A stretch of DNA of 12,048 nt from a virus. The notes below the pieces were generated by a model that saw only the letters and a program-made list of their open reading frames with translations, was not told where the DNA came from and searched no databases. Made by a program: the position numbers and the translations under genes. This document shows positions 1-12,048 of the stretch, piece after piece. The number at the start of each line of letters is the position of its first letter. Positions within the stretch are counted from its first letter, which is position 1. Where the stretch lies: IMG/VR virus record IMGVR_UViG_3300045988_058916, positions 1 through 12,048 of that record. The stretch is one strand, 5' to 3'.

Positions 1-109
1 GGTACACAAAGCACCCCAATTTAACATTTCCCAACGCATTTTTAACAGTTGCTAACACACTTTGGCACGGTTTTTGCTGTGCCACAAATACCTTACATTT
101 TACGTTTAT

Positions 110-136
110 TTAACACATTTAACACACCGTTAACAC
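110..136. repeat. Three phased TTAACAC copies inside the ITR (mirrored at 11913..11939)
   Basis: TTAACAC occurs at 110..116, 119..125 and 130..136, with start-to-start spacing of 9 and 11 nt. Related TTAACA/CTAACAC copies occur at 21..26, 42..47 and 52..58. Confidence 0.6.
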
Positions 137-168
137 TGTTAAACTTTCATAAAAATTAGGTTGCAAAT

Positions 169-209
169 GTTTCACGTGAAACGGTAGTAAGTGATGTTTC
201 ACGTGGAAC
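169..209. promoter_or_regulatory. Pair of 14-bp palindromic sites: GTTTCACGTGAAAC (169..182) and GTTTCACGTGGAAC (196..209). Candidate protein-binding sites.
   Basis: The first site is a perfect 14-bp palindrome; the second has one mismatch. Their centres are 27 bp apart. The same 14-mer recurs at 7025..7038 and in the right ITR. Confidence 0.55.
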
Positions 210-270
210 AAAAGATGGTATATGTTAAAAAGATTAAAATTTAAAATTTTACACTATTTAACAAAAATAA

Positions 271-302
271 TTTGGTGGTTTCGAAAAAAAGTCGTACCTT
301 TG
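271..302 (+). promoter_or_regulatory. Bacteroidota-type promoter of the rightward arm (-33 TTTG at 271..274, -7 TACCTTTG at 295..302)
   Basis: TTTG, 20 nt, TAnnTTTG matches the published Bacteroides/Flavobacterium sigma-A promoter consensus. A 20-mer, AAAATAATTTGGTGGTTTCG, is shared with the right-end promoter. The first ATG lies 46 nt downstream. Confidence 0.65.
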
Positions 303-347
303 CATCAGAAATAAGAAACATAAGTTAAACAATAAAATATAAATATT

Positions 348-473
348 ATGGTTACAATTAAATTTATCGGTGTTAACGGCAAAGGTCAAATGACTGTAAA
401 AGATAGCCAAAAAGATAGTGTTATTACTAGCTTATTAGCAGTTGGTTATGGCATTCTAGGTATTGAAAAGTAA
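348..473 (+). CDS. Small hypothetical protein, 41 aa (MVTIKFIGVNGKGQMTVKDSQKDSVITSLLAVGYGILGIEK), below the ORF-track length cutoff
   Basis: Hand translation: ATG at 348, TAA at 471..473. It is the first ORF after the left promoter and is followed directly by a GC-rich stem-loop. The C-terminal segment is hydrophobic. Confidence 0.4.
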   Translation: MVTIKFIGVNGKGQMTVKDSQKDSVITSLLAVGYGILGIEK

Positions 474-481
474 GTTTAACC

Positions 482-502
482 GCCCCGTGTTTATCACGGG
501 GC
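482..502 (+). terminator. GC-rich stem-loop (GCCCCGTG / CACGGGGC, 5-nt loop). Possible attenuator or RNA stabiliser.
   Basis: An 8-bp perfect stem with no downstream T-tract. It lies between the 41-aa and 108-aa ORFs. Confidence 0.35.
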
Positions 503-518
503 ATAAAATACAAAGGTT

Positions 519-845
519 ATGGCAATTTACAAAATTACATTGGATTTCGAAACCGTTATATCTGTTAACGGTGTTAGAATAAAGAGTGAAACATCACGTG
601 ACACAAAAGCAGTAATAGGTGTTTTTAAAGACGTTGCAAAGGTTATGTATGGGCACGAAATAAACTGCATCAAACATAACAGTTTACCAAATGTGGACAA
701 AGACGTTTGCACTATCTTTGAATCAAAAGATAGTTTACAGTACATAAACGAATATGGTTGTTGTGTTACACAAATTTGTAATAAGTTAGGCAAAGGTGTT
801 AGTTCATTCTTTCAGCTTATTCAGACAAGTGAAAGAATTGATTAA
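519..845 (+). CDS. Hypothetical protein, 108 aa
   Basis: ORF track. It is co-oriented with the left promoter and flanked by stem-loops. I recognise no motif. Confidence 0.6.
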   Translation: MAIYKITLDFETVISVNGVRIKSETSRDTKAVIGVFKDVAKVMYGHEINCIKHNSLPNVDKDVCTIFESKDSLQYINEYGCCVTQICNKLGKGVSSFFQLIQTSERID

Positions 846-855
846 ATGTTTAATA

Positions 856-876
856 GCCCGTGACTTGTTCACGGGC
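856..876 (+). terminator. GC-rich stem-loop (GCCCGTGA / TCACGGGC, 5-nt loop), related in sequence to the one at 482..502
   Basis: An 8-bp perfect stem sharing the CCCGTG...CACGGG core with 482..502. No T-tract follows. Confidence 0.35.
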
Positions 877-890
877 ACAAATTAATATAT

Positions 891-1091
891 ATGGGTTGCA
901 CTTATTTTAGAATCACTATTAAGAGTGATACCGTCAGCACCGTTTATATGGTACGTTCTGATAAAGTTAGCGAGTTTTTTAATAACAAAATAGACTACCT
1001 TTCGGGTGATTGCTCCATCACCGTAAAAGGTCGTTTTCCAACACACAAAGACACCCGCAAATGGTTTGTAGTTTCACCAAAAGAGAAATAA
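891..1091 (+). CDS. Hypothetical protein, 66 aa
   Basis: ORF track. The stop TAA at 1089..1091 lies 2 nt before the endolysin ATG. I recognise no motif. Confidence 0.5.
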   Translation: MGCTYFRITIKSDTVSTVYMVRSDKVSEFFNNKIDYLSGDCSITVKGRFPTHKDTRKWFVVSPKEK

Positions 1092-1093
1092 AT

Positions 1094-1516
1094 ATGAAGA
1101 AAATCAAGTATTTTAAGTTATCCGAATTTATCAATTCAGCAACGGCAAAACGTTTGGGTATTGATAATACACCCACGTTTGATGTAGTGGACAACTTAAA
1201 CCGTTTAGCAGACTATCTAGACGGCATTCGTGCAAAGCTAGGTAAACCGATTTTGGTTTCTAGCGGTTATCGTTGCCCGATGTTGAATAAAGCGGTTGGT
1301 GGGGTTGTTAACAGTCAACATTTGAAGGGTTTGGCTGCCGATTTAATTTGCGCTGATATGGAATCTTTAGAAAAGGTTCTGTTAAAAACGGGCGGTTACG
1401 ACCAACTTATAAAAGAACATCGCAAAGGTTCTAACAGTTTTTGGTATCACGTTTCTGTTTGCCCACGTAACGGCAAACCTCGTAACCAAATAATAATGAA
1501 TCTAGAAAAGAAATAA
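1094..1516 (+). CDS. Endolysin, peptidase M15 family (Peptidase_M15_3 / D-Ala-D-Ala carboxypeptidase-like zinc metallopeptidase), 140 aa
   Basis: The N-terminus YFKLSEFINSATAKRLGIDNTP and the segment SGYRCPMLNKAVGGVVNSQHLKGLAAD (zinc-binding H-x6-D) plus the later WYHVSV His are typical of phage M15 peptidases. I start at the internal ATG 1094 (MKKIKYF) rather than 1010, because 1010..1093 overlaps the upstream ORF and encodes a non-homologous extension. Confidence 0.88.
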   Translation: MKKIKYFKLSEFINSATAKRLGIDNTPTFDVVDNLNRLADYLDGIRAKLGKPILVSSGYRCPMLNKAVGGVVNSQHLKGLAADLICADMESLEKVLLKTGGYDQLIKEHRKGSNSFWYHVSVCPRNGKPRNQIIMNLEKK

Positions 1517-1547: not shown

Positions 1548-1548
1548 T

Positions 1549-3414
1549 TTATAAATATACGCCCGTTTCAAGCTGCGAAATTATTTCGTTATATTCGTCA
1601 ACAAGCAAATTTGCAGTGTTCAAATTTACGTTTTCAAATTGAGCATAACCATTTACGGTATTAATAGTAACCTGCTTTTTAGTACTTTCGATAGAATCTT
1701 TCAACGATTCATAATATTTCACCGTTATATAAGGTTCTAAACCCATCAATACAGAATTTAAGTAACTAGAATCCCCGACCGTTCCTACCTCGTCATTTGC
1801 CAACGTCTTGTATATTATTTCACTGCTGCAATTAGTCACACCGTTATTGATAACAATATCATCGCATTTCATATTATAAGCACAATATCCCGTTACTAGG
1901 TCAATATCGTAACTTAAATTAATAGATTTACCCATAAAATCACTATCTATCGGTACGAATCCTACAAACGGCACGAAACACTGAATATTAACGTTAAAAT
2001 CGTTACTATTATTGGAGTAACTAGGTAGCAAAACAGTTCCAAAGTCAACGTGTACCTTTGAATCGTCAACGCTATTTGTTTCAATACCCGTGTCAAAGTT
2101 AGCTATCTTTAAAGACGTTTTAGAAACGTTTGGCACGTCAACGAAAACTTTATGCAACGAGTTAACATATTGTGCTATGTCGTAATACTCATATTCATAA
2201 GACTCATTTAATTTTTTGGTGAAACGAATCTTAGAAAACTCATTTAACGTTTTGGTGTTAACCAAATAAACGTTTATGCTACCATATCCACTAATCTCAA
2301 CATCGGGCATCGTGCCACCTAGCAGAGTAAAAGTGGAATCACTCACCCTTTCTACATCATTAGGAAAAGTGAAATTTAACGTTGCCGTTTTACCATTTTC
2401 ACTTAAAGTAAATTGGTGTTCCGTTGTTCCGTGTAATGTAGTAACCCATTGAGCAAACGGTAAATTTTCGGGGTCAAAATGAGTTTTTGCCGTTGCCGTT
2501 GCCGTAATATTTGCGACCTCGTTTTCTACATAGAAATCTTTCAGCCCCGAAACGTCACACCCCGTCATCTCGTTAGCAGTTACGCATACAAGACGGTATG
2601 CACCGTTTAAAGTAACGGTTGCACCCTGCTTAACATCGTCCAAAACAACATTTATAATGTTGGTTGTTTGTTCGGGTATTATTGTTTTTGTTTCTCCATT
2701 TGTAGCAACATACGTAACGGTAACGCCTACAAATTTTGCACGTTCACTTTGCCCCGTAACAGTAACAGAAACATTTGTGCCGTCTATCGTATGCGTTTCT
2801 GTTACATCACCCGTTATATTGTTTTTAACGTTTGTGCCAGTGCTAACAGTTTCGCCCGTTATGGTACGTCTTGTATCATAAAGACTATTTGTGTTTGAGC
2901 GAATTTTAAGGGTACACTTTGTATCGTCATCACTCCACGTTTGGCGTGGCACGTTAGCCCCGTTTAATTTAATCGTGTCACGAATCATTTTAAAACCCGA
3001 ATCACACGTAATATGGAGATAGAGATAGCAGTAAACTTGTATGCCCGAATATTCCCGTTCGCCCTTATCTTCCTGCACTATACTTGTATTTGGTATATTG
3101 TTTACCAAATCGTGATAATACAAATGTTCGCCCGTAAAATTAGTTACGTCACCGTCAAAAGTAACGTTCGGGTCGCCCTGCGTCCAATCACCTAGGTTTC
3201 CAATAACAGTTTCCGTTCCACTGCTAGGAATCGTTAACGTTATCTTTTTATCATATAACGTATGCGAGTATTTAGAGTCGTGAAATGTTACTGTTACTTT
3301 GCCCCCTTTCCAATTATAATTAGTGTTTGGTTTAATAGTAACATCGTAACCTAAACCTTTTTCTTTTACAGTAACGGTCGTGCCTATTACATTGTTTGTT
3401 GTCGTTATTGCCAT
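1549..3414 (-). CDS. Tail structural / receptor-binding protein, 621 aa. The N-terminal ~400 aa are beta-rich (Thr/Val/Asn). The C-terminal region resembles the central part of the phi29 gp9 tail knob.
   Basis: It is the last and largest gene of the structural operon. CFVPFVGFVPIDSDFMGKSINLSYDIDL resembles phi29 gp9 [24 protein letters not shown] (from memory). The N-terminal part has repeated VTVT-type beta-strand patterns, as in Ig-like or fibre domains. Confidence 0.55.
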   Translation of the reverse strand: MAITTTNNVIGTTVTVKEKGLGYDVTIKPNTNYNWKGGKVTVTFHDSKYSHTLYDKKITLTIPSSGTETVIGNLGDWTQGDPNVTFDGDVTNFTGEHLYYHDLVNNIPNTSIVQEDKGEREYSGIQVYCYLYLHITCDSGFKMIRDTIKLNGANVPRQTWSDDDTKCTLKIRSNTNSLYDTRRTITGETVSTGTNVKNNITGDVTETHTIDGTNVSVTVTGQSERAKFVGVTVTYVATNGETKTIIPEQTTNIINVVLDDVKQGATVTLNGAYRLVCVTANEMTGCDVSGLKDFYVENEVANITATATAKTHFDPENLPFAQWVTTLHGTTEHQFTLSENGKTATLNFTFPNDVERVSDSTFTLLGGTMPDVEISGYGSINVYLVNTKTLNEFSKIRFTKKLNESYEYEYYDIAQYVNSLHKVFVDVPNVSKTSLKIANFDTGIETNSVDDSKVHVDFGTVLLPSYSNNSNDFNVNIQCFVPFVGFVPIDSDFMGKSINLSYDIDLVTGYCAYNMKCDDIVINNGVTNCSSEIIYKTLANDEVGTVGDSSYLNSVLMGLEPYITVKYYESLKDSIESTKKQVTINTVNGYAQFENVNLNTANLLVDEYNEIISQLETGVYL

Positions 3415-3415
3415 A

Positions 3416-3856
3416 TTAATTACCTTTTACAGTCACCATTATAATGTGGTCGTTATCACTAAACAACCCCGTGTTCGAAAAATCCAACTTTTGGAGTTTT
3501 GGTCGCAAATCGTAAACATTTTCACGGTTTGAGCTATAAGCGCCTGCATTTTCACCCTTTGTCATCGTTGCCGAGCTGTTTAAAATAATATCCTTATAAG
3601 TAAAAAGTACGTCTATTTGCAAGTGTACCGTGCAAGTATCCCCATTTTGTTCTATTTCAGAAACAAAATAATAACGGTTTAAACTTTCGATATAAACATA
3701 GTTAAACGTTACGGGTGTGCGAGTTCTGAAACGAATAATCGGGTTTAACACGTTAAACGTCATATTGAGCACCCCAGTATATTCGTTGTTTTCTTGCAAC
3801 GTCTTGTTTATTCGGTTTGGTTCACCGTCATAAACATAAGTTTTTATTTTAACCAT
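3416..3856 (-). CDS. Tail protein resembling the N-terminal domain of the phi29 gp9 tail knob, 146 aa
   Basis: NRYYFVSEIEQNGDTCTVHLQIDVLFTY resembles phi29 gp9 [31 protein letters not shown] (from memory). The stop lies 1 nt before the ATG of the 621-aa gene (TAATATG). Confidence 0.55.
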   Translation of the reverse strand: MVKIKTYVYDGEPNRINKTLQENNEYTGVLNMTFNVLNPIIRFRTRTPVTFNYVYIESLNRYYFVSEIEQNGDTCTVHLQIDVLFTYKDIILNSSATMTKGENAGAYSSNRENVYDLRPKLQKLDFSNTGLFSDNDHIIMVTVKGN

Positions 3857-3872
3857 ATCTTATAAGTAAAAT

Positions 3873-3911
3873 GGGGCGAATCCCGCGCTTTTCACCTACG
3901 AGAAACGCCCC
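3873..3911 (-). terminator. Possible partial terminator or stem-loop after the capsid gene (GGGGCG ... CGCCCC)
   Basis: A 6-bp GC stem enclosing a 27-nt loop, followed on the - strand by ATTTTA. The structure is weak. Its position after the capsid gene is typical of an attenuator. Confidence 0.25.
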
Positions 3912-3932
3912 AAACAGTTAAACAATAACCAA

Positions 3933-5117
3933 TTAGGCGACGAAGAACACTACAAAGTTTTCGTTGGTATCGTTAAAATACCCTGCATCGAATTTGTAGT
4001 AATTGTTGAAAAACTCTGCTTTTGCGTTGTAATTTGTTGTTACTCGCTTATCTAAGTTAGTAACACCCAAAGCGTCACGGTCAAACATCACACCTAGAAC
4101 ACCGCTAATAGAAACGGCTGCACCGCTAGCAGATTTTACGTCAATCTTCGAAACGTTGGCAAAAGCATAGTCTTTGCCCGTTGCCTGCCAACTTGCCACG
4201 GTTTCAGCCGTTGGTAGCATAACGTTATCGTTGTGGTATGTATCAGCATACAGATAAGTCTTTGCAGCAGTTGCAAAATCAGACAACAAAACGGTGTGCA
4301 AAACGTCTTTCGGTGTGAAACGTTCCTTACCTCCCACGTTGAAAAGTGTTGAAATTGTCTGCAAACGGTCTGAATATAGCCCCATAGTATATGCAGCGAA
4401 ACGTATAAAATCGGGTGTGGTAATTGCAGCATTTGCAGCCAAATGTGCCCCCGTCTTGTCGTTATATAATTTGAGCAAGTTTACGCATCTAACAGTACTT
4501 GCCGTACTGTAATCCACTGTTTCGTGACTAGAAGCAATCCAACCAAATGCAGCTTTATCAGCGTCTAAGGTTTCAGCAATCATATTGTTAATTGTGCGCA
4601 TAATAAGTGCATCGGTCTTGATAGTCATAGACTTTTCAACTGCCGAGTAAATCATTGAAAGAAAACCGTTAAGTTGTTCAGCACTACTGAAAGACTCTTT
4701 TACTTGTCTTTCGGTAATTGAAACGGGCACCTCAAACGTCACCTTCGAATTGAAAAATTTTGCAGAAACAGTTGGTTTGTGAAAAACGTCTTGTTTGTAC
4801 TCTTTGCCGTCTTGCAAATTCCACGTGTCGTTTTCTTCTGCAACGGGCACGTCAGCAGAAATCTTTTCAAGAACACTACCAAATTCCCATGCATCCATAA
4901 GAACACTAGGGACTTTGCCTGCATAAGGGCGGTTCACGAAAACAACCTTACCAATATGGTTCACCAGTGATTTAACGTAGTTGTCAACGGCATTCTGATT
5001 AAAAATCTCGTTGCCCAAATCTACTACACCCGTAAGGTCTTCCTGCACCAAATCGGTTTTGCCCAAAACCTCACTTGAAACGCTATTAATAAGCGTGTAA
5101 ATCTGTTTAATCTCCAT
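3933..5117 (-). CDS. Major capsid protein, phi29 gp8-like (HK97 fold), 394 aa
   Basis: NYVKSLVNHIGKVVFVNR resembles gp8 DFITSLVDRIGLVVIRQV. The C-terminal FDRDALGVTNLDKRVTTNYNAKAEFFNNYYKF resembles gp8 [30 protein letters not shown] (from memory). It lacks the C-terminal BIG2 domain of phi29 gp8. Confidence 0.8.
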   Translation of the reverse strand: MEIKQIYTLINSVSSEVLGKTDLVQEDLTGVVDLGNEIFNQNAVDNYVKSLVNHIGKVVFVNRPYAGKVPSVLMDAWEFGSVLEKISADVPVAEENDTWNLQDGKEYKQDVFHKPTVSAKFFNSKVTFEVPVSITERQVKESFSSAEQLNGFLSMIYSAVEKSMTIKTDALIMRTINNMIAETLDADKAAFGWIASSHETVDYSTASTVRCVNLLKLYNDKTGAHLAANAAITTPDFIRFAAYTMGLYSDRLQTISTLFNVGGKERFTPKDVLHTVLLSDFATAAKTYLYADTYHNDNVMLPTAETVASWQATGKDYAFANVSKIDVKSASGAAVSISGVLGVMFDRDALGVTNLDKRVTTNYNAKAEFFNNYYKFDAGYFNDTNENFVVFFVA

Positions 5118-5132: not shown

Positions 5133-5702
5133 TTAATAAATATCTAATGTTAACTCTTTTGCAAGTTCTGTAATAACCTGCATTTTGAAATTTGTTCTTC
5201 TGAGATTTATTTCTTTTTGAATAATCTCACTAGTAAGATAGCTAGACGGAACACCGTTTTTAACACTTGTTTTCGTGCCCGTTTCTTGTCTGCTTCCCGT
5301 TGTGTCACGTTGTTGTTTTGTGTCATTGCCAAATCCCCCATTATTAAATGTTGTACTTGAATCGATAGTATTATTATTGCCCGTTTCGTCAACGTTTGTA
5401 CTTGTTGTTTCCGTTAACTTTTCAGTAATCGGGTTTAATACCTCATATTCAGTGTTAAACACTTGAATCTGTTTTTGCCACGCATCAAAGTTTACTGTTA
5501 TGATACCTTTTACAATATCATTTGCAGTTTCGTTTGTGATGGCATCTACTAGTGTTCTGTTTCCGTATTTGAAACGAAAATCCGTATCAATAACTTTCGG
5601 GTCATCATCTCCAAAAATAGACTGATACAAGACGGGAAAAAGCGGTTTAAAGATTTTTTCAAATAAACCATTTTCACCCGTGAAAAGTTCATTTATCTTC
5701 AT
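5133..5702 (-). CDS. Structural-module protein of unknown role, 189 aa. Candidate scaffolding protein or lower-collar/head-tail adaptor.
   Basis: It lies between the portal and capsid genes, and its start overlaps the portal 3' end by 14 nt. The central T/N/G/S-rich segment (TETTSTNVDETGNNNTIDSSTTFNNGGFGNDTKQQRDTTGSRQETGTKTS) is low-complexity. The role is a positional inference only. Confidence 0.3.
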   Translation of the reverse strand: MKINELFTGENGLFEKIFKPLFPVLYQSIFGDDDPKVIDTDFRFKYGNRTLVDAITNETANDIVKGIITVNFDAWQKQIQVFNTEYEVLNPITEKLTETTSTNVDETGNNNTIDSSTTFNNGGFGNDTKQQRDTTGSRQETGTKTSVKNGVPSSYLTSEIIQKEINLRRTNFKMQVITELAKELTLDIY

Positions 5703-6750
5703 CTTCTTTTTCTTCTGTTTCTTGTGTTTCTTCTGTTTCCGTTTCTGTTTCTTCTGTTTCTTCTGTTTCTTCTGTTTCCGTTTCTGTTTCTTCTGTTTCT
5801 TGTGTTTCTTCTGTTTCGCCCGTTTCGTTTTCGTTTACGGGGTCAACGTCTTCTGTGTCGGTGTGGTCGTGCCCGTCTTCTGTTTCCTGCAATAAAGACA
5901 AGTAATTTTCGTGTTCAATTTTCCAACTTGAGCCGAGTGTTACGGTTATATCCGTACCGAACATTTCGTTAACACGTTTTACGCCCTCAACACGTTCTGT
6001 TAGCATTGAATCAACAAACGGCATTAATGCGTCAATATTCATTGAAACTTCTTGAGTGTTCAAACGTTCACGTTTCATATTGTAATTTGCGTTCAAACCT
6101 AGGTCGTTAAACATAGACGCTTTATAGTACTGCAAAAGTTCTATTAATTGTCCTATCTGCAAATTACTTTGTGACGGTGGGGTTTGCATATTTACACCTT
6201 TGAAAAATGCATTTTCACCGATAACGGAAAAATCACCGTCCAAAATCTTTTGCAGAAACAATTCTGCACTTTGTTTTGTCTTGTCATCACTAGCAGAAAT
6301 CAACATTGTAATGCGTGTTAAAATACTCGTCATATTGAGTGTTATTACTGTATCAGTATATAGCACACCATATTTGCCTATAATAGGCAGTATTGAATCT
6401 GCAAACGGGGTGTTATTGATAACGACAATATCGGAATCTATTTTATATGTTTTGTCAAGCTTTAGCCACGGGTTTGCTACCACATAATCTTTTCCGTGAT
6501 AATAAGCGTCACATTCGCCCCCACGTGTGCCCTGCAAAGCATACAAGTTTCCGTTAACTTCTGCTATTCCAACGTTACCGCTTGTTTGAAGAATCTTTTC
6601 AAGTTCAACGGGCGGCATTGTTTCGGGTGTTCCGTTGTACTCAAACATTTTTGTCGTCATACAAAGAACACGTTGCATAAACGAATTTAATGCCGTGTCT
6701 TTGTCTTTTACTTCTGTTTGGTACAAATTATATAAGTTTTCTTTTTTCAT
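5689..6750 (-). CDS. Portal (connector / upper collar) protein, phi29 gp10-like, 353 aa, with an extended acidic Glu/Thr repeat C-terminal tail
   Basis: [27 protein letters not shown] resembles gp10 [44 protein letters not shown] resembles gp10 NLEKKERMVTDEVSSN (from memory). The C-terminus is [45 protein letters not shown]. Confidence 0.85.
   Translation of the reverse strand: [353 protein letters not shown]
5710..5817. repeat. In-frame tandem triplet repeat (39-bp unit, about 2.7 copies) encoding the portal Glu/Thr tail
   Basis: 5731..5769 and 5770..5808 differ at one base. A 30-nt direct repeat occurs at 5710..5739 and 5788..5817. All units are multiples of 3 nt. Confidence 0.85.
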
Positions 6751-6944
6751 TACTTGATAAGCGTTTTAATTAACGTGCAAAGTTCAGTTAACACTTTCGT
6801 GTTACTTTGCACCGTTTCGTTTAACTTGTCGGTTTCGTTTTGGTGTCTTTCGTTCTGTTTCTCCATATAGAAGAAAAGGGCGACACACACCGCTACGGGA
6901 AACCCCACGTTACTAATTAGCGATATTAATCCGTTTATATCCAT
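6750..6944 (-). CDS. Small single-pass membrane protein, 64 aa, YvrJ-like. Holin candidate.
   Basis: LISLISNVGFPVAVCVALFFYMEK matches my recollection of the YvrJ family (PF12841) ISN-GFP-hydrophobic-helix signature. There is one predicted TM helix followed by a polar helical tail. It is the first gene after the late promoter, and its stop overlaps the portal ATG (TAATG). Confidence 0.55.
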   Translation of the reverse strand: MDINGLISLISNVGFPVAVCVALFFYMEKQNERHQNETDKLNETVQSNTKVLTELCTLIKTLIK

Positions 6945-6975: not shown

Positions 6976-7007
6976 CAAAGATACCCATATTATTTGGTTT
7001 CACCAAA
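6976..7007 (-). promoter_or_regulatory. Bacteroidota-type promoter of the structural (late) operon (-33 TTTG at 7007..7004, -7 TATCTTTG at 6983..6976, read on the - strand)
   Basis: TTTG, 20 nt, TAnnTTTG has the same spacing as the two end promoters. It lies 31 nt upstream of the ATG at 6944, just downstream of the early-operon terminator. Confidence 0.65.
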
Positions 7008-7010
7008 TAA

Positions 7011-7054
7011 AACGGGGGAAAATTGTTTCACGTGAAACAATTTTAACCCCCGTT
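7011..7054 (-). terminator. Long hairpin terminator of the replication/packaging operon, containing the GTTTCACGTGAAAC palindrome (7025..7038)
   Basis: 7019..7044 is a 26-bp perfect palindrome (AAAATTGTTTCACGTGAAACAATTTT). It is extended by AACGGGGG / CCCCCGTT arms with a 2-nt bulge. On the - strand it is followed by TTTTATTT. It starts 9 nt after the ATPase stop. Confidence 0.7.
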
Positions 7055-7062: not shown

Positions 7063-8202
7063 TTAAGTGATGATATTGCTCCTAGCACTTGCCATTAGGT
7101 AGTTTCTAACAATTTCGCCTATCTCGTTATTTTGGTAAAATACCTTATCTGTCGCGAAATACTTAGTTATCTGTGCCTCCAAATATGTGGCAGTACTTAG
7201 TAATTTACGCTTATAATTAGGTTTACCGTTCATTTGCAGCGAATAAATCAAGCTATTTTCCGTGTCTTTTATCGGGGTTGTTTTGTTATGTATATAGATA
7301 AAGTTGTTCACCCCGTTTTCTTTGTCTTCTATCTGAATAACGTTTCCCTGCAAAGTCATCTCATTAAACTGAATATAGAACACAAATAACACGTCTTTCG
7401 GTTTGTATTTAACGGGCAAATGTGGGTAAACTGCCAATTCCCATTTACCGCCCGTTATCATTTGCAGATTTTCGTTATCAAAGCAAAAATACTTGTTACT
7501 TGCTTTTTGCTTTATAATTGTACTGCAATATTCTACTGCGACCGTTGCACCGTGTTCACCGAATCGGTAAATGTCTATCGTTCCCTGCTCCATCACTCTT
7601 ACCTGCTTTAAACCCATTTCGGTAAAATACGGGCAAAATTGATTTACGGTGTTACCCAACATAAAGACTTTCACATCGTTTCTCTGTCGTATTATTGTGC
7701 TCAATAAATTCATATAAAGCATAAACTCATCGGGCAAATAGTAACGTCTAGTTAAAAACTCATCGAAAACGACCGTTGTTATGTTCGGGTAACTGCTAGA
7801 CTTTTCGTGTTCTTGTTCTGATAAACAGAAACCAAAACAGAAAGGTGTGCTATCGGGTACACGTTTTTTGGTTTCTGCATCATAAGACGAAAGAAACCAT
7901 TTACCCGACACGTAAAACACCTCGTTAAACTTGCCGTTTGTCAATTCTTGAATCACACCATTAGCAACGTGATTACTGAATAAACTTTCAGCTCGTTTTC
8001 CTCGCAAATCTTCACGCCATCTACGGATATACGCCATCTGTTTTCCCGTGCGCAAATACTCTTTTATGCCATACAATAACGTGGCATAAGTCTTTCCGTT
8101 TGAGCGTTCACCGAATATAACGTTGTAATCGGCATTCTTTGCCAAAATTCTAGAAAGACTGTAAAACTTTGGCGTTTCTACTTTTTCTTTCTTCTGTTTC
8201 AT
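7063..8202 (-). CDS. DNA packaging (encapsidation) ATPase, phi29 gp16-like, 379 aa
   Basis: Walker A: YNVIFGERSNGKTYA resembles gp16 LNFVIGARGIGKSYA. MAYIRRWREDL resembles FIYVRRYKPEL. Walker B: SSYPNITTVVFDEFLTR resembles NAYPNVSTIVFDEFIRE (from memory). Confidence 0.88.
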   Translation of the reverse strand: MKQKKEKVETPKFYSLSRILAKNADYNVIFGERSNGKTYATLLYGIKEYLRTGKQMAYIRRWREDLRGKRAESLFSNHVANGVIQELTNGKFNEVFYVSGKWFLSSYDAETKKRVPDSTPFCFGFCLSEQEHEKSSSYPNITTVVFDEFLTRRYYLPDEFMLYMNLLSTIIRQRNDVKVFMLGNTVNQFCPYFTEMGLKQVRVMEQGTIDIYRFGEHGATVAVEYCSTIIKQKASNKYFCFDNENLQMITGGKWELAVYPHLPVKYKPKDVLFVFYIQFNEMTLQGNVIQIEDKENGVNNFIYIHNKTTPIKDTENSLIYSLQMNGKPNYKRKLLSTATYLEAQITKYFATDKVFYQNNEIGEIVRNYLMASARSNIIT

Positions 8203-8203: not shown

Positions 8204-10414
8204 TTATTCTTTTTTTAGTCTTATTCCCATTAAATAGTTTATATAAAGAACTGAAAGACTCAAAGTGTACCCCGTTGGTTCTAGGTGTACGCCAGTTACC
8301 GTGTCGTAACTTGAAACCGTACCCAAATAGTCTTTTATTGTTCCCGTTTGCTCATAGTCAATATATGTATGGATATTTTTGCCCGTTGCTATCGGTGGAA
8401 TATCTAGATAATTTGTAAATGCGTCAAAGATACCACTTTCACCGTATGTTTCTAACAGATACGGTATTGCATCTTTCTTGTTCACACCCGACACCGTTAT
8501 GCAATAATTATAGTCTTTTCCGTCAACTGTAAGGGCGTTTTCTTCCTCAACTAGATAACGTTTAGCCCCTAACGTTTTAAAACGCTTGTAACGCCCCTCG
8601 TAATCCCATATCCCCAAAAGTTTTGCGACCCCTTTTATTGTAACGGGTTCTACCTTTTCAAAAGGTATTTTATGAAATTTACAAGCTGCACGTAACTTTT
8701 GTTGTACCAAATCATTGTATGCTTTAAAATACGCTTTGTGGGCATCACCGTTCATTATTTTAACTGAATCGGTATCACTGTATATATAGTCATCTCCACA
8801 TTCAGAAATTCCCGTGAAAAGGTTTCGTCTAGCATAAGCGGTAACGTAAATACCCCACGGGTAAAAAAGAAAACGGTTTTTGCTATCATTGTATTTCGTC
8901 AGCATCTCTAATTTCTTTTCACTTGTCAAGTGTTCAATATCCCACGTTTCACCGTCACACAAAATCTCATCACGCAAAGGGTTTGTAACACACATACCAT
9001 AACAACTGTTTAACATCTCCTTACTATTTAAATACTCCACTTCTTTTCCACGCACGCCTTTTAGTTTCGTCTTCATTTCGTACAAATGGAGTATTGAATC
9101 CACAAATTCGGTGGGCAAATATTCTTTGCGGTAACAAATCATTTTGCCAATTCTGAAATTTTCCCAGCTGTAAAACTGCGAGAAAACTTTAAAATCTATT
9201 TCAGTAATAGTCATACATATTCGTTTTGCACAAACCAATCGCCCGTTATTTTCTGATATGTTTTCTTTTACAAAGCACTTACTAACAGAAATAGGATTTT
9301 CGTTTTCTGATTTTGCAAAAATGTTGTTTATCTCAATATCGAAAACACAACAAAATTTGCTTGTCATAAACTCAAATTGTTTCATTGATTTAATGGGTAC
9401 AAAAACACCCGTACTCATAGGAAAACGTTCTGAAACCATCACATAAGGGTAACTACTAGTAAAATCATAACTATCAACGTTTTCTATTACCTCATCGGTG
9501 TATTTAGCATTTGCGTGCGTGAAACCACCTGCAAACGCACGTTGCAACATTTCAAATTCTTCTATGCCAGTAATATTTAAGCTATGGATTTTATCTAAAT
9601 ACTTAAAATTCGGTACGGTTTTCCCCGTTTCGTTATCTTCTGTTTTGAAACAAATAGACCTGCAATATTTACGCACGAATCCCGTTTTCGTAAGTGGCAG
9701 TTTTGTTATGCCCTTATAACGTTCAATCAATTCTTGAATATAGCACATTACTACTTTTATATCGTTCAGACAATAACCAATCTCTTTTTGTGTTAACGGT
9801 GTTTTACTGTGACGTAATAGGCTATAATCTAAGTCACCAACTAACTTTTCACATTTGTATTTATGTAATTGTTCGCCTAACTTTGCCAAAGAATAACCGC
9901 TTAAAAGATACGAGCATCTAAACTCTAAACCCGTTTTTGTTATTCCATAAATAGGTTTACGTAAATCTATAGAGAAAACTTTTTCCCATAACAGTAACTC
10001 ACGGAAAAATTGAAACTCGTATGCTAGGTTATGCACGTATATAATGATACGTCTTTTTGTATTTAGTTTCAGAATTATTTCTATTTCTGATAACATATCC
10101 AAAAATTCTTCCCACGTGCGACCAATAATACAGAATCCGTTTATTCCAAATTGCCAAACATACATTAAAGAACACTTTTCCATTTTTGTATCTTTTCCAC
10201 CTAGTTTAATGTAACGGTCGTAACTATATGTTTCACCGTCAGCATCTCTATAGAAAGACGTTGTTTCAATATCAAACGAAACGGGCACATTTAAGAACTT
10301 TTCGCCCTTATTATTGCCAACGAAATTCTTTTCGTTCACTGCCAAAGATAAAACTTTTGCAATATCTTTCGGGGTGTACGTTTCTGTATGTAATTCAAAT
10401 GGAATCTTTTTCAT
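8204..10414 (-). CDS. Family B DNA polymerase, protein-primed type, 736 aa
   Basis: ExoI VSFDIETTS, ExoII YVHNLAYEFQF, ExoIII YCLNDIKVV, motif A DSYDFTSSYPYVM (Dx2SLYP-like), motif B KEMLNSCYGM (Kx3NSxYG), motif C YSDTDSV, KxY LGAKRYL. The context (ITRs and an adjacent candidate terminal protein) fits protein priming. Confidence 0.93.
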   Translation of the reverse strand: MKKIPFELHTETYTPKDIAKVLSLAVNEKNFVGNNKGEKFLNVPVSFDIETTSFYRDADGETYSYDRYIKLGGKDTKMEKCSLMYVWQFGINGFCIIGRTWEEFLDMLSEIEIILKLNTKRRIIIYVHNLAYEFQFFRELLLWEKVFSIDLRKPIYGITKTGLEFRCSYLLSGYSLAKLGEQLHKYKCEKLVGDLDYSLLRHSKTPLTQKEIGYCLNDIKVVMCYIQELIERYKGITKLPLTKTGFVRKYCRSICFKTEDNETGKTVPNFKYLDKIHSLNITGIEEFEMLQRAFAGGFTHANAKYTDEVIENVDSYDFTSSYPYVMVSERFPMSTGVFVPIKSMKQFEFMTSKFCCVFDIEINNIFAKSENENPISVSKCFVKENISENNGRLVCAKRICMTITEIDFKVFSQFYSWENFRIGKMICYRKEYLPTEFVDSILHLYEMKTKLKGVRGKEVEYLNSKEMLNSCYGMCVTNPLRDEILCDGETWDIEHLTSEKKLEMLTKYNDSKNRFLFYPWGIYVTAYARRNLFTGISECGDDYIYSDTDSVKIMNGDAHKAYFKAYNDLVQQKLRAACKFHKIPFEKVEPVTIKGVAKLLGIWDYEGRYKRFKTLGAKRYLVEEENALTVDGKDYNYCITVSGVNKKDAIPYLLETYGESGIFDAFTNYLDIPPIATGKNIHTYIDYEQTGTIKDYLGTVSSYDTVTGVHLEPTGYTLSLSVLYINYLMGIRLKKE

Positions 10415-11043
10415 TATAGACCAAAATTTTTAAAACTATCTAGAATCCTTTGCACCGTGTCTTCCACGACCTCACCAACATTATCAATACTGTTTTGTAA
10501 GTTGTCGGCAATTTTAACGGCATCACTTTCTATTTGGTCGGACACATCACGACTTTCTTGTTCCAATTCGCCCGTAAAATCTTTGTACTGCATTAAATAT
10601 TGTTCAAGAAACTTTTCGTCTGATACGCTAGAGATTTTGCCTATTAACTTGTTTTGCATTAAACTAAACTCATCGTCAGTTAGTTTATATGTTTTCTTTA
10701 AGTGTTTGGCATATTCGTTTGCACCCGTTGCCGTTGATGTTGGCTGCTGCAAAAATGCGATAGCTTTAGAATATTCGATTTTTAGGTCGTTCCAGTTATG
10801 TTTCATTGAAAACTTTGAATAACCTTTTACGTCACCCTTATTTAATGCCACAACTGCGGGAGATACCACACCGTTTTTCTCTATATTCTGAATGCGTCTA
10901 TTTGCCTGCTGAAAAACCTTCGAAATTTGTTTTCTTAAACTAGGGCTAGACTCAACGGCATTGATAATTTCTTTTTTGATACGGGCTTTTTTCGTTGCAT
11001 TAAATGTACGATTACTAAACCCGATAGGATTTTTATTTGCCAT
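10414..11043 (-). CDS. Candidate terminal protein (replication primer), 209 aa
   Basis: Position only. It lies immediately upstream of the polymerase and is translationally coupled to it (TAATG overlap at 10412..10416), as with phi29 gene 3/gene 2. The N-terminus is basic and the C-terminus acidic. I recognise no motif. Confidence 0.4.
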   Translation of the reverse strand: MANKNPIGFSNRTFNATKKARIKKEIINAVESSPSLRKQISKVFQQANRRIQNIEKNGVVSPAVVALNKGDVKGYSKFSMKHNWNDLKIEYSKAIAFLQQPTSTATGANEYAKHLKKTYKLTDDEFSLMQNKLIGKISSVSDEKFLEQYLMQYKDFTGELEQESRDVSDQIESDAVKIADNLQNSIDNVGEVVEDTVQRILDSFKNFGL

Positions 11044-11059
11044 AAAATAAATATAAAAA

Positions 11060-11091
11060 GGGGGCGATTATTAATTAAAACAACCGCCCCC
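11060..11091 (-). terminator. Intra-operon stem-loop with T-tract (possible attenuator) between the 121-aa gene and the terminal-protein candidate
   Basis: On the - strand: GGGGGCG, 18-nt AT loop, CGCCCCC, followed by TTTTTATATTTATTTT. The stem is a 7-bp GC stem. Confidence 0.4.
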
Positions 11092-11123
11092 ACCGTTACA
11101 CATATATCACCCAAAAACCACTC

Positions 11124-11489
11124 TTACTTATCTACAAAAGTAATGCCATAGCACTTCTTTGCGTGCGACTCGTACTCATAAATAGTATATCCCACCTTAT
11201 TTGCTTTAATAGCATCTACGGCATCACTGTTAGCTAAAATCTCACGTACCGTGTCACCCGTAAATGCTGGCAAATTTACTAGACGCTTGTTTTCAGCGTC
11301 AATAATAACGGGCGAGTCACCTAACTGTGATTTATGCACGTACATACCATTAATAGGGTGAACAACATCACCGCCACCGTCTTTCTCACCGTTGTAAATG
11401 TCTGTTAACTTCACAAACGGAAAATCTGTGGTATCAATACCAAAACTAGCCTTGTTAAATGTGCTAGCGAAACTAAAACCCTTTGCCAT
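11124..11489 (-). CDS. Hypothetical early protein, 121 aa. Possible ssDNA-binding protein by size and position only.
   Basis: ORF track. It is the second gene of the right-end operon, similar in size and position to phi29 p5 (SSB). I recognise no sequence motif. Confidence 0.6.
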   Translation of the reverse strand: MAKGFSFASTFNKASFGIDTTDFPFVKLTDIYNGEKDGGGDVVHPINGMYVHKSQLGDSPVIIDAENKRLVNLPAFTGDTVREILANSDAVDAIKANKVGYTIYEYESHAKKCYGITFVDK

Positions 11490-11540
11490 AACTTATAATA
11501 TTTAACGTTAAACTTTCTGTTTTTATAAAGAGATTAATTA

Positions 11541-11705
11541 TTAAATCTCTTTAAGACCGTTTGCACTTGCAAATTCGTTTAACCACTTCTTAAAGCGGTT
11601 CAACTTGATAACTGCTTTGTCATCTTTTGCAACCTCGTTACTAGTCATCAAAGCGTTAACGCTAGTAATACAATTAAACATTACTTCATTAAAATTTTCG
11701 TTCAT
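11541..11705 (-). CDS. Small hypothetical early protein, 54 aa (MNENFNEVMFNCITSVNALMTSNEVAKDDKAVIKLNRFKKWLNEFASANGLKEI), below the ORF-track cutoff
   Basis: Hand translation of the - strand: ATG at 11705..11703, TAA at 11543..11541. It is the first ORF downstream of the right-end promoter and is predicted helical. Confidence 0.45.
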   Translation of the reverse strand: MNENFNEVMFNCITSVNALMTSNEVAKDDKAVIKLNRFKKWLNEFASANGLKEI

Positions 11706-11754
11706 AACTTACCTAATTTAAATTGTTAAACTTATATGTTTTCTAAACACGGTG

Positions 11755-11786
11755 CAAAGATAAGTCAATTTTACGAAACCACCAAA
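11755..11786 (-). promoter_or_regulatory. Bacteroidota-type promoter of the replication (early) operon (-33 TTTG at 11786..11783, -7 TATCTTTG at 11762..11755, read on the - strand)
   Basis: TTTG, 20 nt, TAnnTTTG. It shares the 20-mer AAAATAATTTGGTGGTTTCG with the left promoter. Confidence 0.65.
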
Positions 11787-11800
11787 TTATTTTAGTTAAA

Positions 11801-11827
11801 AAGTATTAATGGATAAAATTAATACTT
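11801..11827. promoter_or_regulatory. 10-bp perfect inverted repeat (AAGTATTAAT, 7 nt, ATTAATACTT) between the right ITR and the early promoter
   Basis: Seen directly in the sequence. There is no counterpart at the left end. It lies about 15 nt upstream of the -33 element. Confidence 0.3.
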
Positions 11828-11834
11828 GTTAACA

Positions 11835-12048
11835 CTTTTGTTCCACGTGAAACATCACTTACTACCGTTTCACGTGAAACATTTGCAACCTAATTTTTAT
11901 GAAAGTTTAACAGTGTTAACGGTGTGTTAAATGTGTTAAATAAACGTAAAATGTAAGGTATTTGTGGCACAGCAAAAACCGTGCCAAAGTGTGTTAGCAA
12001 CTGTTAAAAATGCGTTGGGAAATGTTAAATTGGGGTGCTTTGTGTACC
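11835..12048. repeat. Right inverted terminal repeat (214 bp)
   Basis: Exact reverse complement of 1..214. Confidence 0.95.
11840..11880. promoter_or_regulatory. Right-ITR copies of the palindromic sites (GTTCCACGTGAAAC at 11840..11853, GTTTCACGTGAAAC at 11867..11880)
   Basis: Mirror image of 169..209. Confidence 0.55.

Follow-up and report, generated by a model that had tools for sequence, protein, structure and literature searches.

An uncultured phi29-like mini-podophage genome from a common gut group, with Bacteroidota-type expression signals

The cultured phages closest to the genome described here are Salmonella phages astrithr, Astrid and assan, of the genus Astrithrvirus, and four unclassified relatives of theirs: Pectobacterium phage DU_PP_III, Enterobacter phage Entb_47, Shigella phage vB_SHGBLB0004 and Vibrio phage K58 g2. 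Acinetobacter phage Phanie belongs to the same group. These phages have linear genomes of 10,390-11,885 bp. Inverted terminal repeats (ITRs), flush with the ends, are present in both records examined (18 nt in astrithr, 171 nt in Phanie). According to a J Virol 2024 report, as relayed in PMC11476376, Phanie is a satellite whose virions are infectious only once docked on the tail of a helper myophage. An earlier note on this DNA held that all characterised phi29-like families infect hosts of the Firmicutes, Actinobacteria or Mollicutes. This is incorrect; the closest cultured relatives infect six genera of Gram-negative Proteobacteria, and phi29-like phages of such hosts are explicitly described in a review (PMC11476376). 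The only phi29-like genome earlier proposed for Bacteroidales is 'Bacteriophage sp. isolate 2692_55609' (MCP cluster 30), which the same review relates to Amedibacillus phage AD70P2.

We analysed a stretch of 12,048 nt with 15 genes, here called the window. With a probability of roughly 0.78, we consider this to be, apart from a missing AAA at either end, the genome of an uncultured virulent phi29-like mini-podophage, with an Astrid/astrithr-like capsid and a putative Bacteroidota host. Its group, related to Salmonella phage Astrid, is common in the gut and has already been catalogued. Searching IMG/VR with the capsid gene found 384 matching stretches, the best 80 of the 384 at 88-94% identity, and ~190 faecal genomes are listed in Astrid's capsid cluster (MCP cluster 23, Table S1 of the Evseev et al. 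2024 review, PMC11476376). Given these matches, and the Astrithrvirus-type kin, the window is not deeply divergent, nor does it set a size record. Hence, the earlier suggestions of extreme smallness, implied rarity and proteins recognisable only by short motifs do not stand. Capsid, ATPase and PolB are 56-60%, 51-53% and 41-46% identical to those of the Astrithrvirus group, and alignments with phi29 proteins extend over 139-591 columns. Since there is no nucleotide-level similarity to the Astrithrvirus group, the window does not belong to that genus.

Genome ends and terminal repeats

The ITRs, at positions 1-214 and 11835-12048, match each other perfectly (100% complementary) and reach both window ends, exactly as first described. 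Inside these ITRs, a further 100 nt (223-322 and 11735-11834) are 73% complementary. A conserved origin core (GGTACACAAAGCAC..TTTAACATTTCCCAAC..TTTGGCACGGTTTTTG) takes up the first ~80 nt, and the terminal ~80 nt are kept among 38 unique ends. We surveyed the window together with 114 independently assembled related contigs. Flush ITRs, of 18-423 nt, were found in 67 of the 115 sequences (66 of 114 without the window), and 36 loci have an identical terminal sequence. AAAGGTACAC is the exact stopping point of 24 contig ends in related assemblies. At 17 more ends, an Illumina adapter is joined directly to AAAGGTACAC. A physical DNA end is the sole possible source of such ligation. Hence, real physical ends are demonstrated in the relatives. 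Because these display the true terminus 5'-AAAGGTACAC, we infer that the window is 3 nt (AAA) short at each end. Note that the phi29 terminus is AAAGTAAG. Thus, the earlier picture of a whole linear, ITR-bounded, phi29-like podophage genome is borne out, while its equation of window ends with genome ends fails by these 3 nt. Related assemblies cluster at 11.4-12.7 kb. Homologues of the tail protein and p189 (see below) never occur on contigs longer than ~13 kb, so the window is not part of a prophage.

Gene content

The protein-primed PolB gene (8204-10414, minus strand) matches PF03175 (E 2.5e-15), phrog_1907 (E 6e-71) and phi29 DNAP 1XHX (E 1.9e-8). BLASTP aligns the product with residues 14-509 of the phi29 polymerase (591 columns, 23% identity), and its sequence contains the motifs DIETT, DFTSSYP, KEMLNSCYG, YSDTDS and KRY. 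Immediately upstream is a gene for a 209 aa protein (10414-11043, minus strand), whose stop codon overlaps the PolB start (ATGA). In phi29, gene 3 likewise precedes gene 2. The protein is 27-30% identical to astrithr gp02 and Phanie gp2, with S61-P62-A63 invariant and T102-S103-T104 near-invariant; profile comparison with the phi29 terminal protein (gp3) detected no similarity. On position and conservation, it is a putative terminal protein. In this role, it would serve as primer for the phi29-type PolB at the two ITR ends, and the AAA terminal reiteration would permit sliding-back (compare AAAGTA in phi29). Two further early genes lie on the same strand. The first, p54 (11541-11705), has homologues in 83 loci of the clade lacking Shine-Dalgarno (SD) sequences. 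The second, p121 (11124-11489), was found in 87 loci. Searches of Pfam, PHROG and PDB with p121 gave no match, and an hhalign comparison with phi29 p5 (gp5) was not significant; its position and conservation make it a candidate ssDNA- or DNA-binding protein. The DNA-packaging ATPase (7063-8202, minus strand; PF05894, E 1.7e-22) is of gp16 type, with 27% identity to phi29 gp16 (275 columns, E 6e-22). Its Walker A (GERSNGKT) and Walker B (VVFDEF) motifs can be read directly from the sequence. A search of the genome for pRNA produced no match.

The virion genes are all on the minus strand. The phi29-type major capsid protein (3933-5117) matches PF25622 Phi29_MCP (E 1.9e-54). The portal, or upper collar connector (5689-6750), matches PF05352 (E 4.4e-13) and phrog_2038 (E 1.7e-35), and is 23% identical to phi29 gp10 over 282 columns. 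At its C-terminus is an acidic ETEETE repeat tail, encoded by a 39-nt repeat present 2.9 times. Hence, the phi29-like PolB, ATPase, portal and capsid named in the earlier note are upheld by Pfam and PHROG profiles, while its tail knob is upheld in part. The relevant protein, of 146 aa (3416-3856), matches the N-terminal part of knob proteins from C1 (4EO2, E 3.7e-4), phi29 (gp9, 5FB4, E 0.01) and Andhra (8EGS, E 0.01). It is 35% identical to astrithr gp09 and 29% identical to Phanie gp9, annotated 'putative tail knob protein'. From these profiles, we take it to be the proximal tail knob, corresponding to the N-terminal region of phi29 gp9. The distal tail knob, and probable receptor-binding protein, is the 621 aa product of 1549-3414, identified by Foldseek, AF2 and homology to astrithr gp10. 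Its N-terminal ~370 aa comprise tandem Ig/FnIII-like beta domains, of which the first ~200 aa are hypervariable, and the conserved knob part occupies its C-terminal ~300 aa (coverage profile of 98 homologues). In the AF2 model, pLDDT is 85-95 from residue 1 to 371 and falls below 50 over residues 372-621. Foldseek matches the protein with multi-Ig proteins as well as with Astrid gp10 (E 6e-12), and identity to astrithr gp10 is 25-26% in the C-terminal half. Between portal and capsid is p189 (5133-5702), a conserved virion-module protein syntenic with astrithr gp07 and Phanie gp7. Given its position and conservation, p189 may be a short lower collar or scaffold. A PDB profile search with it found no match, hhalign against phi29 gp11 was not significant, and its AF2 model is unusable (pLDDT 39.5).

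The late operon opens with a 64 aa holin (6750-6944, minus strand; phrog_4898, E 1.3e-7), which has one transmembrane segment (residues 6-24, hydropathy 2.2) and homologues in 96 loci, astrithr and Phanie among them. An M15 peptidase endolysin is encoded on the plus strand (1094-1516; PF08291, E 3.3e-20; phrog_894, E 2e-37). Among isolated phages, its best matches are Bacteroides fragilis siphophages (47-50% identity), almost equalled by Achromobacter phage enzymes (45-46%). The left arm, which is variable, also carries, on the plus strand, g41 (348-473), a 41-aa ORF of doubtful status with homologues in only 6 loci; g108 (519-845), an accessory protein present in 30 of ~114 loci, for which Pfam and PHROG searches found no match; and g66 (891-1091), a small protein of 78 loci, all inside the close clade.

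Expression signals and host

The primary sigma factor of Bacteroidetes recognises a bipartite TTTG/TAnnTTTG promoter (PMC7366714). The window contains 6 matches to TTTG-N17-23-TAnnTTTG, compared with 1.32 expected, a number reached in 1 of 200 shuffles. Three sites with the form TTTG-N20-TAnnTTTG share an identical 32-nt layout and are in the expected non-coding places, correctly oriented. These are the predicted left-end promoter (271-302, plus strand; TTTGGTGGTTTCGAAAAAAAGTCGTACCTTTG, with a -33 TTTG, 20-nt spacer and -7 TAnnTTTG), right-end early promoter (11755-11786, minus strand; TTTGGTGGTTTCGTAAAATTGACTTATCTTTG) and late promoter (6976-7007, minus strand; TTTGGTGAAACCAAATAATATGGGTATCTTTG). 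Conversely, sigma-70 type promoters are not enriched in the window (44 versus 40.4 expected) and none is at the needed positions. Equivalents of the inward-facing terminal promoters occur in 75-76 of 81 clade genomes, and the late promoter is at the same position in 78 of 81. Its -7 box is kept even in five diverged relatives (L005, L006, L007, L027 and L033) where intergenic DNA is otherwise unalignable.

The three predicted promoters (two terminal, one internal), of Bacteroidota sigma-AB type, would define three transcription units. The right early unit (p54, p121, terminal protein, PolB and ATPase) would run to a strong intrinsic hairpin terminator (7011-7054, minus strand; -31.6 kcal/mol, z = -6.4, followed by GUUUUAUUU). 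The late unit would comprise holin, portal, p189, capsid, proximal knob and distal knob/receptor-binding protein. It would converge with the left unit, of variable accessory genes and the M15 endolysin, on a bidirectional intrinsic terminator (1515-1549; -20.5 and -21.0 kcal/mol, z = -6.1 and -5.6). Hairpins with U tracts after the capsid gene (3872-3912, minus strand; -26.2 kcal/mol, z = -3.4) and in the gap between p121 and the terminal protein gene (11060-11091, minus strand; -25.6 kcal/mol, z = -3.6) are likely attenuators. Another hairpin is 3' of g41 (482-502; z = -3.7). A palindrome, GTTTCACGTGAAAC, is found upstream of all three predicted promoters. Two copies are at 169-209 (169-182, and 196-209 with one mismatch), mirrored at 11840-11880, and another (7025-7038) forms the apex of the early terminator. 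In total, the window has 5 sites, compared with 0.14 expected (0 of 200 shuffles), and the palindrome is confined to the SD-less clade. It is a candidate operator, probably bound by a dimeric regulator that would time early and late expression; p54 is one candidate for this regulator. Promoter activity and regulator binding are predicted from sequence.

No gene of the 15 has an SD sequence at dG <= -4.5 kcal/mol, and the mean of -1.25 is weaker than the background of -1.86. By comparison, SDs precede 12 of 15 genes in astrithr and 9 of 13 in Phanie. Leaders in the window are A-rich, with A enriched at -14 to -11, -6 and -3, matching the Bacteroidetes pattern (PMC7366714). Translation would thus be SD-independent. 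Across 77 close IMG/VR genomes, the mean SD energy is -1.4, with 3.6 TTTG/TAnnTTTG promoters per genome; SD-using relatives have energies of -4.5 to -9.7 and 0-1 such promoters. The SD-less genomes are monophyletic in both capsid and PolB trees, forming one gut subclade. MAG bins containing clade members are labelled discordantly, as Melainabacteria/Gastranaerophilales (two), Scatosoma, Prevotella and Christensenellaceae. Both the promoters and the lack of SDs reported in the earlier note hold across the 81 related genomes. Since translation appears SD-independent, with A-rich leaders, and promoters are of Bacteroidota type, our data indicate a Bacteroidota host, probably gut Bacteroidales, in agreement with that note.

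The same genome could instead belong to a phage of another SD-poor gut lineage, such as Gastranaerophilales (Melainabacteria). Low SD usage has been reported for the cyanobacterial lineage too. The closest genome_contigs relatives, L003 and L004 (91-92% capsid identity), are in two independent Melainabacteria/Gastranaerophilales MAGs, and their GC content of ~37% fits low-GC hosts. However, MAG labels are unreliable here: a contig labelled 'Phocaeicola' (L010) has strong SDs, and the bins of SD-less contigs include Tissierella, Staphylococcaceae and Christensenellaceae. Furthermore, the Bacteroidetes-sigma promoter is positionally conserved across the clade and the needed positions lack sigma-70-like alternatives. 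We regard such a host as unlikely. A gammaproteobacterial host is far less probable still. While the closest cultured phages grow on Salmonella, Pectobacterium, Acinetobacter, Enterobacter, Shigella and Vibrio, they have strong SDs, lack both Bacteroidota promoter and palindrome, are placed outside the SD-less clade by both trees and have no DNA-level similarity to the window.

A separate possibility, which would add to the Bacteroidota phage reading, is that the phage is a satellite like Phanie, needing a helper myophage. It has the group's split tail knob (146 and 621 aa) and no separate tail-fibre or tailspike gene, and Phanie's strategy has been proposed as possible for other Gram-negative phi29-like phages (PMC11476376, section 2.6). 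Yet Astrid, with the same architecture, is called non-satellite in a 2025 preprint (10.1101/2025.06.18.659913), no similarity to Phanie gp10 was detected, and the hypervariable, swappable Ig-like half of the 621 aa protein looks like an autonomous receptor-binding module. Hence, we think satellite status improbable. Least credible are ITRs produced by faulty assembly, or a circular or terminally redundant molecule. Chimeric reads can make assemblers produce inverted-repeat ends, and the window comes without read data of its own, but this explanation is largely refuted by the varying flush ITRs, shared termini, adapter junctions and clustered lengths of independently assembled relatives. Moreover, the repeats are inverted rather than direct.

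Comparison with known systems

Gene order is near one-to-one with astrithr and Phanie. The core shared with astrithr runs from small gene(s) through terminal protein candidate, PolB, ATPase, holin and portal to a ~185-aa protein, capsid, 146-aa proximal knob and large distal knob. The acidic portal tail is also common to the Astrithrvirus group. Unlike that group, the window has p121 as an extra early gene, Bacteroidota-type promoters and GTTTCACGTGAAAC, and lacks SDs. Its M15 endolysin is on the opposite strand; those of astrithr and Phanie are on the structural-gene strand and have no detectable similarity to it. Phanie shares synteny and the split tail knob (capsid 60%, proximal knob 29% identical), but its 854-aa gp10 has no detectable similarity to the 621-aa protein.

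More distantly, phi29 (a Bacillus phage, Salasmaviridae) shares the protein-primed PolB, gp16 ATPase, gp10 portal and gp8-type capsid, at 23-27% identity. The terminal AAA reiteration (at the inferred end), a terminal protein gene (here a candidate) directly upstream of the polymerase gene, and an inverted-repeat protein-binding site in the early/late switch region also correspond; in phi29 this is the annotated p4 site, for which the palindrome is a candidate equivalent. The window is smaller (12 kb versus 19.3 kb), with longer ITRs (214 nt versus 6 nt), lacks head fibres, appendages (gp12) and gp13, and has no match to pRNA. Its knob is split over two genes, its packaging ATPase is in the early unit, and its host type and expression signals differ.

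By description, isolate 2692_55609 is similarly faecal, phi29-like and ~12.1 kb; its tail knob is split, and Bacteroidales have been proposed as its hosts. However, the AD70P2 capsid is only 29% identical to that of the window and, comparing the isolate by its description, the two appear to be separate lineages. The uncultured faecal relatives are much closer. They have the same promoters, palindromes and termini, with genome-wide coverage x identity of 62-75%, and differ in left-arm accessory genes. In IMG/VR UViG 3300045988_061847, the terminal protein candidate, PolB, ATPase, portal and capsid are 94-98% identical, but the tail protein has a swapped receptor-binding half (identity 35% over 49% of its length). 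Among these relatives, the window is a distinct species-level genome.

Gene content and relatives

The window has a GC content of 36.4% and is tiled by 15 ORFs, four running rightward from the left end and 11 leftward from the right end. The rightward ORFs encode, from left to right, products of 41, 108 and 66 aa and then a 140-aa endolysin. Starting at the right end, the leftward products are of 54, 121, 209, 736, 379, 64, 353, 189, 394, 146 and 621 aa. The same layout emerged when genes were called independently on two related public contigs. Five main products had Pfam and PHROG matches well over threshold. These are PolB (736 aa; 8204-10414, minus strand; PF03175, DNA_pol_B_2, E 2.5e-15; phrog_1907, E 6e-71), the packaging ATPase (7063-8202, minus strand; PF05894, E 1.7e-22), the portal (5689-6750, minus strand; PF05352, E 4.4e-13), the capsid protein (3933-5117, minus strand; PF25622, Phi29_MCP, E 1.9e-54) and the endolysin (1094-1516, plus strand; PF08291, E 3.3e-20). 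The earlier note had described the proteins as recognisable only through short motifs. This was an understatement, since BLASTP aligned them with phi29's own proteins over 139-591 columns. Identity was 23% for PolB (591 columns, phi29 residues 14-509, E 2e-14), 27% for the ATPase (275 columns, E 6e-22), 23% for the portal (282 columns, E 2e-10) and 24% for the capsid protein (139 columns, E 3e-6). A profile match linked PolB to the phi29 DNA polymerase (1XHX, E 1.9e-8, chain residues 136-463). The window enzyme is of the protein-primed type, and its alignment with the phi29 polymerase spans the region that bears TPR1 and TPR2 in phi29. The 64-aa product is a holin with one transmembrane segment (phrog_4898, E 1.3e-7).

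The portal C-terminus (residues ~300-353; window 5689-5850, minus strand) is an acidic low-complexity repeat, ETEETEETQ..., encoded by 2.9 copies of a 39-nt unit at 96% identity. Acidic repeat tails occur on portals group-wide, including those of astrithr and of relatives that use Shine-Dalgarno (SD) sequences. They are built from differing units (DPTAEP, TETDTE and SEDSED in contigs L005, L019 and L086, respectively). Most other window genes have homologues in 78-105 loci. The left arm (348-1091) is the most variable part of the clade, with homologues of the 41-aa product in six loci and of the 108-aa product in 30. Its genes, without detectable homology, are candidates for host takeover or anti-defence.

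None of 50,697 INPHARED phage records was matched when the complete window was searched by megablast. By protein, the best cultured relatives included the Salmonella phages astrithr, Astrid and assan, Enterobacter phage Entb_47, Shigella phage vB_SHGBLB0004 and Vibrio phage K58 g2. Their genomes are 10.4-11.9 kb long, and their capsid and PolB proteins are 56-60% and 41-46% identical to those of the window. The gene orders of astrithr and of Acinetobacter phage Phanie match that of the window almost one-to-one. Such identities and synteny do not fit the deeply divergent lineage suggested previously. A search of IMG/VR with the capsid gene returned 384 matching stretches; the best 80 of the 384 were 88-94% identical, on contigs mostly of 11.4-12.7 kb. 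Some protein clusters had hundreds of members, up to 553 sequences. The product of whole-genome coverage and identity was 62-75% at best and, therefore, the window is a distinct species in a genus-level swarm.

With its gp16-type ATPase, gp10-type portal and phi29-type capsid, detected by Pfam and BLASTP, the window belongs to the broad phi29-like assemblage, and the phage would operate as phi29-type phages do. As judged from sequence, it falls in the Astrid-like capsid group (cluster 23 for the major capsid protein in PMC11476376), on the basis of capsid similarity, synteny, a split knob and a genome size of 10-14 kb. The same review describes these relatives as phi29-like phages that infect Gram-negative hosts, lack fibre genes and have a split tail knob, and in its Table S1 about 190 uncultured genomes from faeces (10.5-14.5 kb) are assigned to this capsid cluster. 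The genus Astrithrvirus does not include the window, given the absence of nucleotide similarity (the genus level is about 70%) and protein identities of only 41-60%. The Salasmaviridae do not include it either, in view of its different architecture and the lack of a detected pRNA. Note that the Rfam scan of the window (E <= 1) gave only chance-level matches, and that a divergent pRNA would escape it. We conclude that the window represents an uncultured phage from a gut subclade that has been catalogued, though not characterised. Literature searches turned up neither a cultured phi29-like phage of Bacteroidales nor a description of this subclade under a name.

Tail proteins and candidate terminal protein

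The tail-knob homologue proposed earlier was recovered for the proximal part only. The family profile of the 146-aa protein matches N-terminal portions of the tail-knob proteins from C1 (4EO2, E 3.7e-4), phi29 (5FB4, E 0.01) and Andhra (8EGS, E 0.01), and supports a predicted role as the proximal part of the knob. For the C-terminal half of the 621-aa protein, no link to phi29 gp9 was found. This half shares homology with gp10 of Salmonella phage Astrid, which was among the top viral matches in a fold search with the 621-aa protein (E 6e-12). AF2 gave a usable model for residues 1-371 only, a string of Ig/FnIII-like beta domains (pLDDT 85-95); the conserved knob part, residues 372-621, was unmodelled. 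The first ~200 residues are common to only 5-9 of 98 homologues and the last ~280 to nearly all. L035 (IMG/VR UViG 3300045988_061847), the closest genome overall, is 94-98% identical to the window in the candidate terminal protein (TP), PolB, ATPase, portal and capsid, yet only 35% identical, over 49% of the length, in the 621-aa protein. Hence, this protein looks like an exchangeable receptor-binding module fused to a conserved distal knob.

The 209-aa protein is encoded directly upstream of PolB, with an ATGA overlap, and its conservation reaches as far as astrithr gp02 and Phanie gp2. It is a candidate TP, assigned by position; phi29 gene 3 similarly lies upstream of gene 2. Profile searches of PDB sequences, and hhalign, detected no similarity between this candidate and the phi29 TP. 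Position also suggests that p121, the 121-aa product, may be an SSB or other DNA-binding protein, and that p189, the 189-aa product, may be a short lower collar or scaffold. The AF2 model of p189 was unusable (pLDDT 39.5). For p189, the TP candidate, the tail C-terminal half and p121, PDB-sequence profile searches returned nothing, or spurious designed-repeat matches. Alignments of the four with phi29 gp11, gp3, gp9 and gp5, using hhalign, were all non-significant (probability <1%).

Physical ends of the genome

As the earlier note had seen, perfect inverted repeats of 214 nt sit flush with both ends of the window (1-214 and 11835-12048). The next 100 nt inward on each side are 73% complementary. 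Among 115 sequences (the window and 114 related contigs), 67 have flush ITRs, of 18-423 nt, and a common terminal sequence is present, in independent assemblies, on 62 ends from 36 loci. Twenty-four of these 62 ends stop exactly at AAA+GGTACAC. At a further 17, an Illumina adapter (...GATCT) is fused directly to AAAGGTACAC. Such a junction arises only at a physical DNA end and, therefore, the true terminus is 5'-AAAGGTACAC. Since the window begins with GGTACAC, 3 nt are missing from each window end. Hence, the proposal that the window is a whole linear genome stands as regards the ITRs and the ends defined in relatives, but the sequence is 3 nt short at either side. The molecule is linear dsDNA with ITRs and defined physical ends. 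Note that TruSeq adapters fused to phage termini are contamination in the public IMG/VR records, yet proof of physical ends here; the contigs concerned include L066, L038, L052, L085, L069, L071, L094, L095 and others.

The terminus of phi29 is AAAGTAAG. Terminal reiteration of this kind is what sliding-back initiation in phi29 replication requires. Conservation extends over the first ~80 nt of 38 unique ends. Further inward are a variable AT-rich stretch with TTAACA repeats, then palindromes, and then a promoter. An element, TTTGGCACGGTTTTTG, occurs 64-65 nt from the inferred genome end (window 61-88 and 11961-11988; 65-105 in contig L027; 36-50 in contig L033). It is kept between sub-lineages with otherwise diverged ITRs, has two copies per end in L027, and may be an origin-associated or packaging site. 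The strict ITR motif, TGGCACGGTTTTTG, was rejected as a universal element, being present in only 13 of 89 clade genomes. Homologues of the tail protein and p189 were found on no contig larger than about 13 kb, which points to an autonomous linear genome and against a prophage.

Expression signals, host and regulation

None of the 15 window genes has an SD sequence, and the mean anti-SD duplex energy is -1.25 kcal/mol compared to a background of -1.86. SDs are used by 12 of 15 genes in astrithr (mean -6.84) and 9 of 13 in Phanie (mean -7.20). The sequence TTTG-N17-23-TAnnTTTG occurs six times in the window, where 1.32 matches are expected; 1 of 200 shuffles scored as high. Three of the six matches are in the three non-coding regions needing promoters, correctly oriented and with the same 32-nt layout (271-302, plus strand; 6976-7007 and 11755-11786, minus strand). 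A sigma-70 promoter scan of the window showed no enrichment. The -7 TAnnTTTG and -33 TTTG boxes are the recognition sequence of the Bacteroidetes primary sigma factor, and Bacteroidetes lack classical SDs, having leaders enriched for A at -3, -6 and -11 to -15 (PMC7366714). Leaders in the clade have 47-69% A at -14 to -11, 57% at -6 and 62% at -3. Those of SD-using relatives have a G peak at -13 to -10 instead.

The trait is bimodal. SD-less genomes are the window, 77 close IMG/VR genomes, with a mean of 3.6 TTTG/TAnnTTTG promoters each, and the contigs L003-L008, L027 and L033. Astrithr, Phanie and other gut relatives have strong SDs and 0-1 such promoters. In the capsid tree and in the PolB tree alike, the SD-less genomes group as a single clade. 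Promoter positions are conserved in 75-78 of 81 genomes, and the -7 box upstream of the holin gene is retained in sub-lineages with otherwise unalignable intergenic DNA. The Bacteroidota-type promoters and missing SDs reported previously were thus confirmed. Outside the SD-less clade, L028 (a 12,777 bp contig from a Muribaculaceae-labelled MAG) uses SDs at an intermediate level (mean -4.46; 5 of 12 genes). This lineage may be in transition, or may infect a different SD-poor host.

The promoters, absence of SDs and A-rich leaders agree with the expression signals expected of Bacteroidota phages, and we place the probability of a Bacteroidota host at about 0.75-0.8. The endolysin is weaker evidence. 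Among isolated phages, it is most similar to the enzymes of Bacteroides fragilis siphophages (47-50%), closely followed by those of Achromobacter phages (45-46%). MAG taxonomy was rejected as host evidence. Complete group genomes of ~12 kb (L003-L034, from the genome_contigs scan) are mis-binned into MAGs with conflicting labels, including Melainabacteria, Prevotella, Phocaeicola, Tissierella, Staphylococcaceae, Bifidobacteriaceae, Omnitrophota and others, and copies filed under Methanobrevibacter are also listed in PMC11476376. The labels span Melainabacteria, Firmicutes, Bacteroidota, Actinobacteria and Omnitrophota, and contradict the SD signature. A separate consideration is whether the clade requires a helper phage. 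The window shares its architecture with Phanie, which is a helper-dependent satellite according to the work cited in PMC11476376. Astrid is described as a non-satellite (preprint 10.1101/2025.06.18.659913). We regard helper dependence of the clade as improbable. Equally little weight is given to a combined scenario of one crossing into Bacteroidota, with rewired promoters and ribosome-loading signals, gain of a palindromic operator, and fibre-less virions needing the tail of a co-infecting helper. If true, tail-hijacking satellite phages would be common in the human gut.

Each intergenic gap of the window has a significant GC-rich hairpin and then a U tract. Hairpins follow g41, the 41-aa gene (482-502, plus strand, z -3.7), the capsid gene (3872-3912, minus strand, z -3.4) and the ATPase gene (7011-7054, minus strand, z -6.4). 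Another, on both strands, lies between the converging units (1515-1549, z about -6). Together, promoters and hairpins delineate three transcription units. The right-end early unit would comprise p54 (the 54-aa product), p121, TP, PolB and ATPase; the late unit would comprise the holin, portal, p189, capsid and two knob proteins; the left-end unit would carry accessory genes and the endolysin. The remaining hairpin and U tract, between the p121 and TP genes (11060-11091, minus strand, z -3.6), sit inside the early unit and could hold the expression of p121 above that of TP and PolB.

The palindrome GTTTCACGTGAAAC has five copies in the window, compared to 0.14 expected. Two are in each ITR, upstream of the terminal promoters, and the fifth makes up the early terminator's apex, 17 nt upstream of the -33 box of the late promoter. 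Only the SD-less clade has the palindrome, typically with five copies per genome, and every SD-using relative lacks it. In the diverged contigs L027 and L033, GTTTCACGTGAAAC is inside the late-promoter spacer. Half-sites (TTTGGTGAAAC, TTTGGTGGTTTC) occur in the -33 regions of all three promoters (271-283, 6996-7007 and 11774-11786), and this overlap hints at sharing of this DNA by a regulator and the sigma factor, or at competition between them for it. We propose that GTTTCACGTGAAAC is a putative operator for a dimeric regulator timing early and late transcription.

As a whole, the finding is incremental. The wider group and its Gram-negative hosts were already published, and for another lineage (cluster 30, PMC11476376) a Bacteroidales host had been proposed. 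New here are a monophyletic subclade with uniformly Bacteroidota-type transcription and translation signals, a clade-specific operator-like palindrome, and exact physical termini. Bacteroidota, for which no cultured phi29-like phage is known, are the dominant Gram-negative phylum in the human gut, the clade is prevalent (hundreds of IMG/VR entries), and its expression signals make a specific, testable host prediction. With 15 genes, three promoters, five terminators and one operator motif, it is a very small, fully mapped model for Bacteroidota transcription and SD-independent translation. It is also a natural example of phage regulatory rewiring after an inter-phylum host jump, and a candidate for a minimal chassis on which phages against Bacteroidales could be engineered. 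In phi29, the p4 site would be the functional analogue of the putative GTTTCACGTGAAAC operator, and the two are unrelated in sequence.
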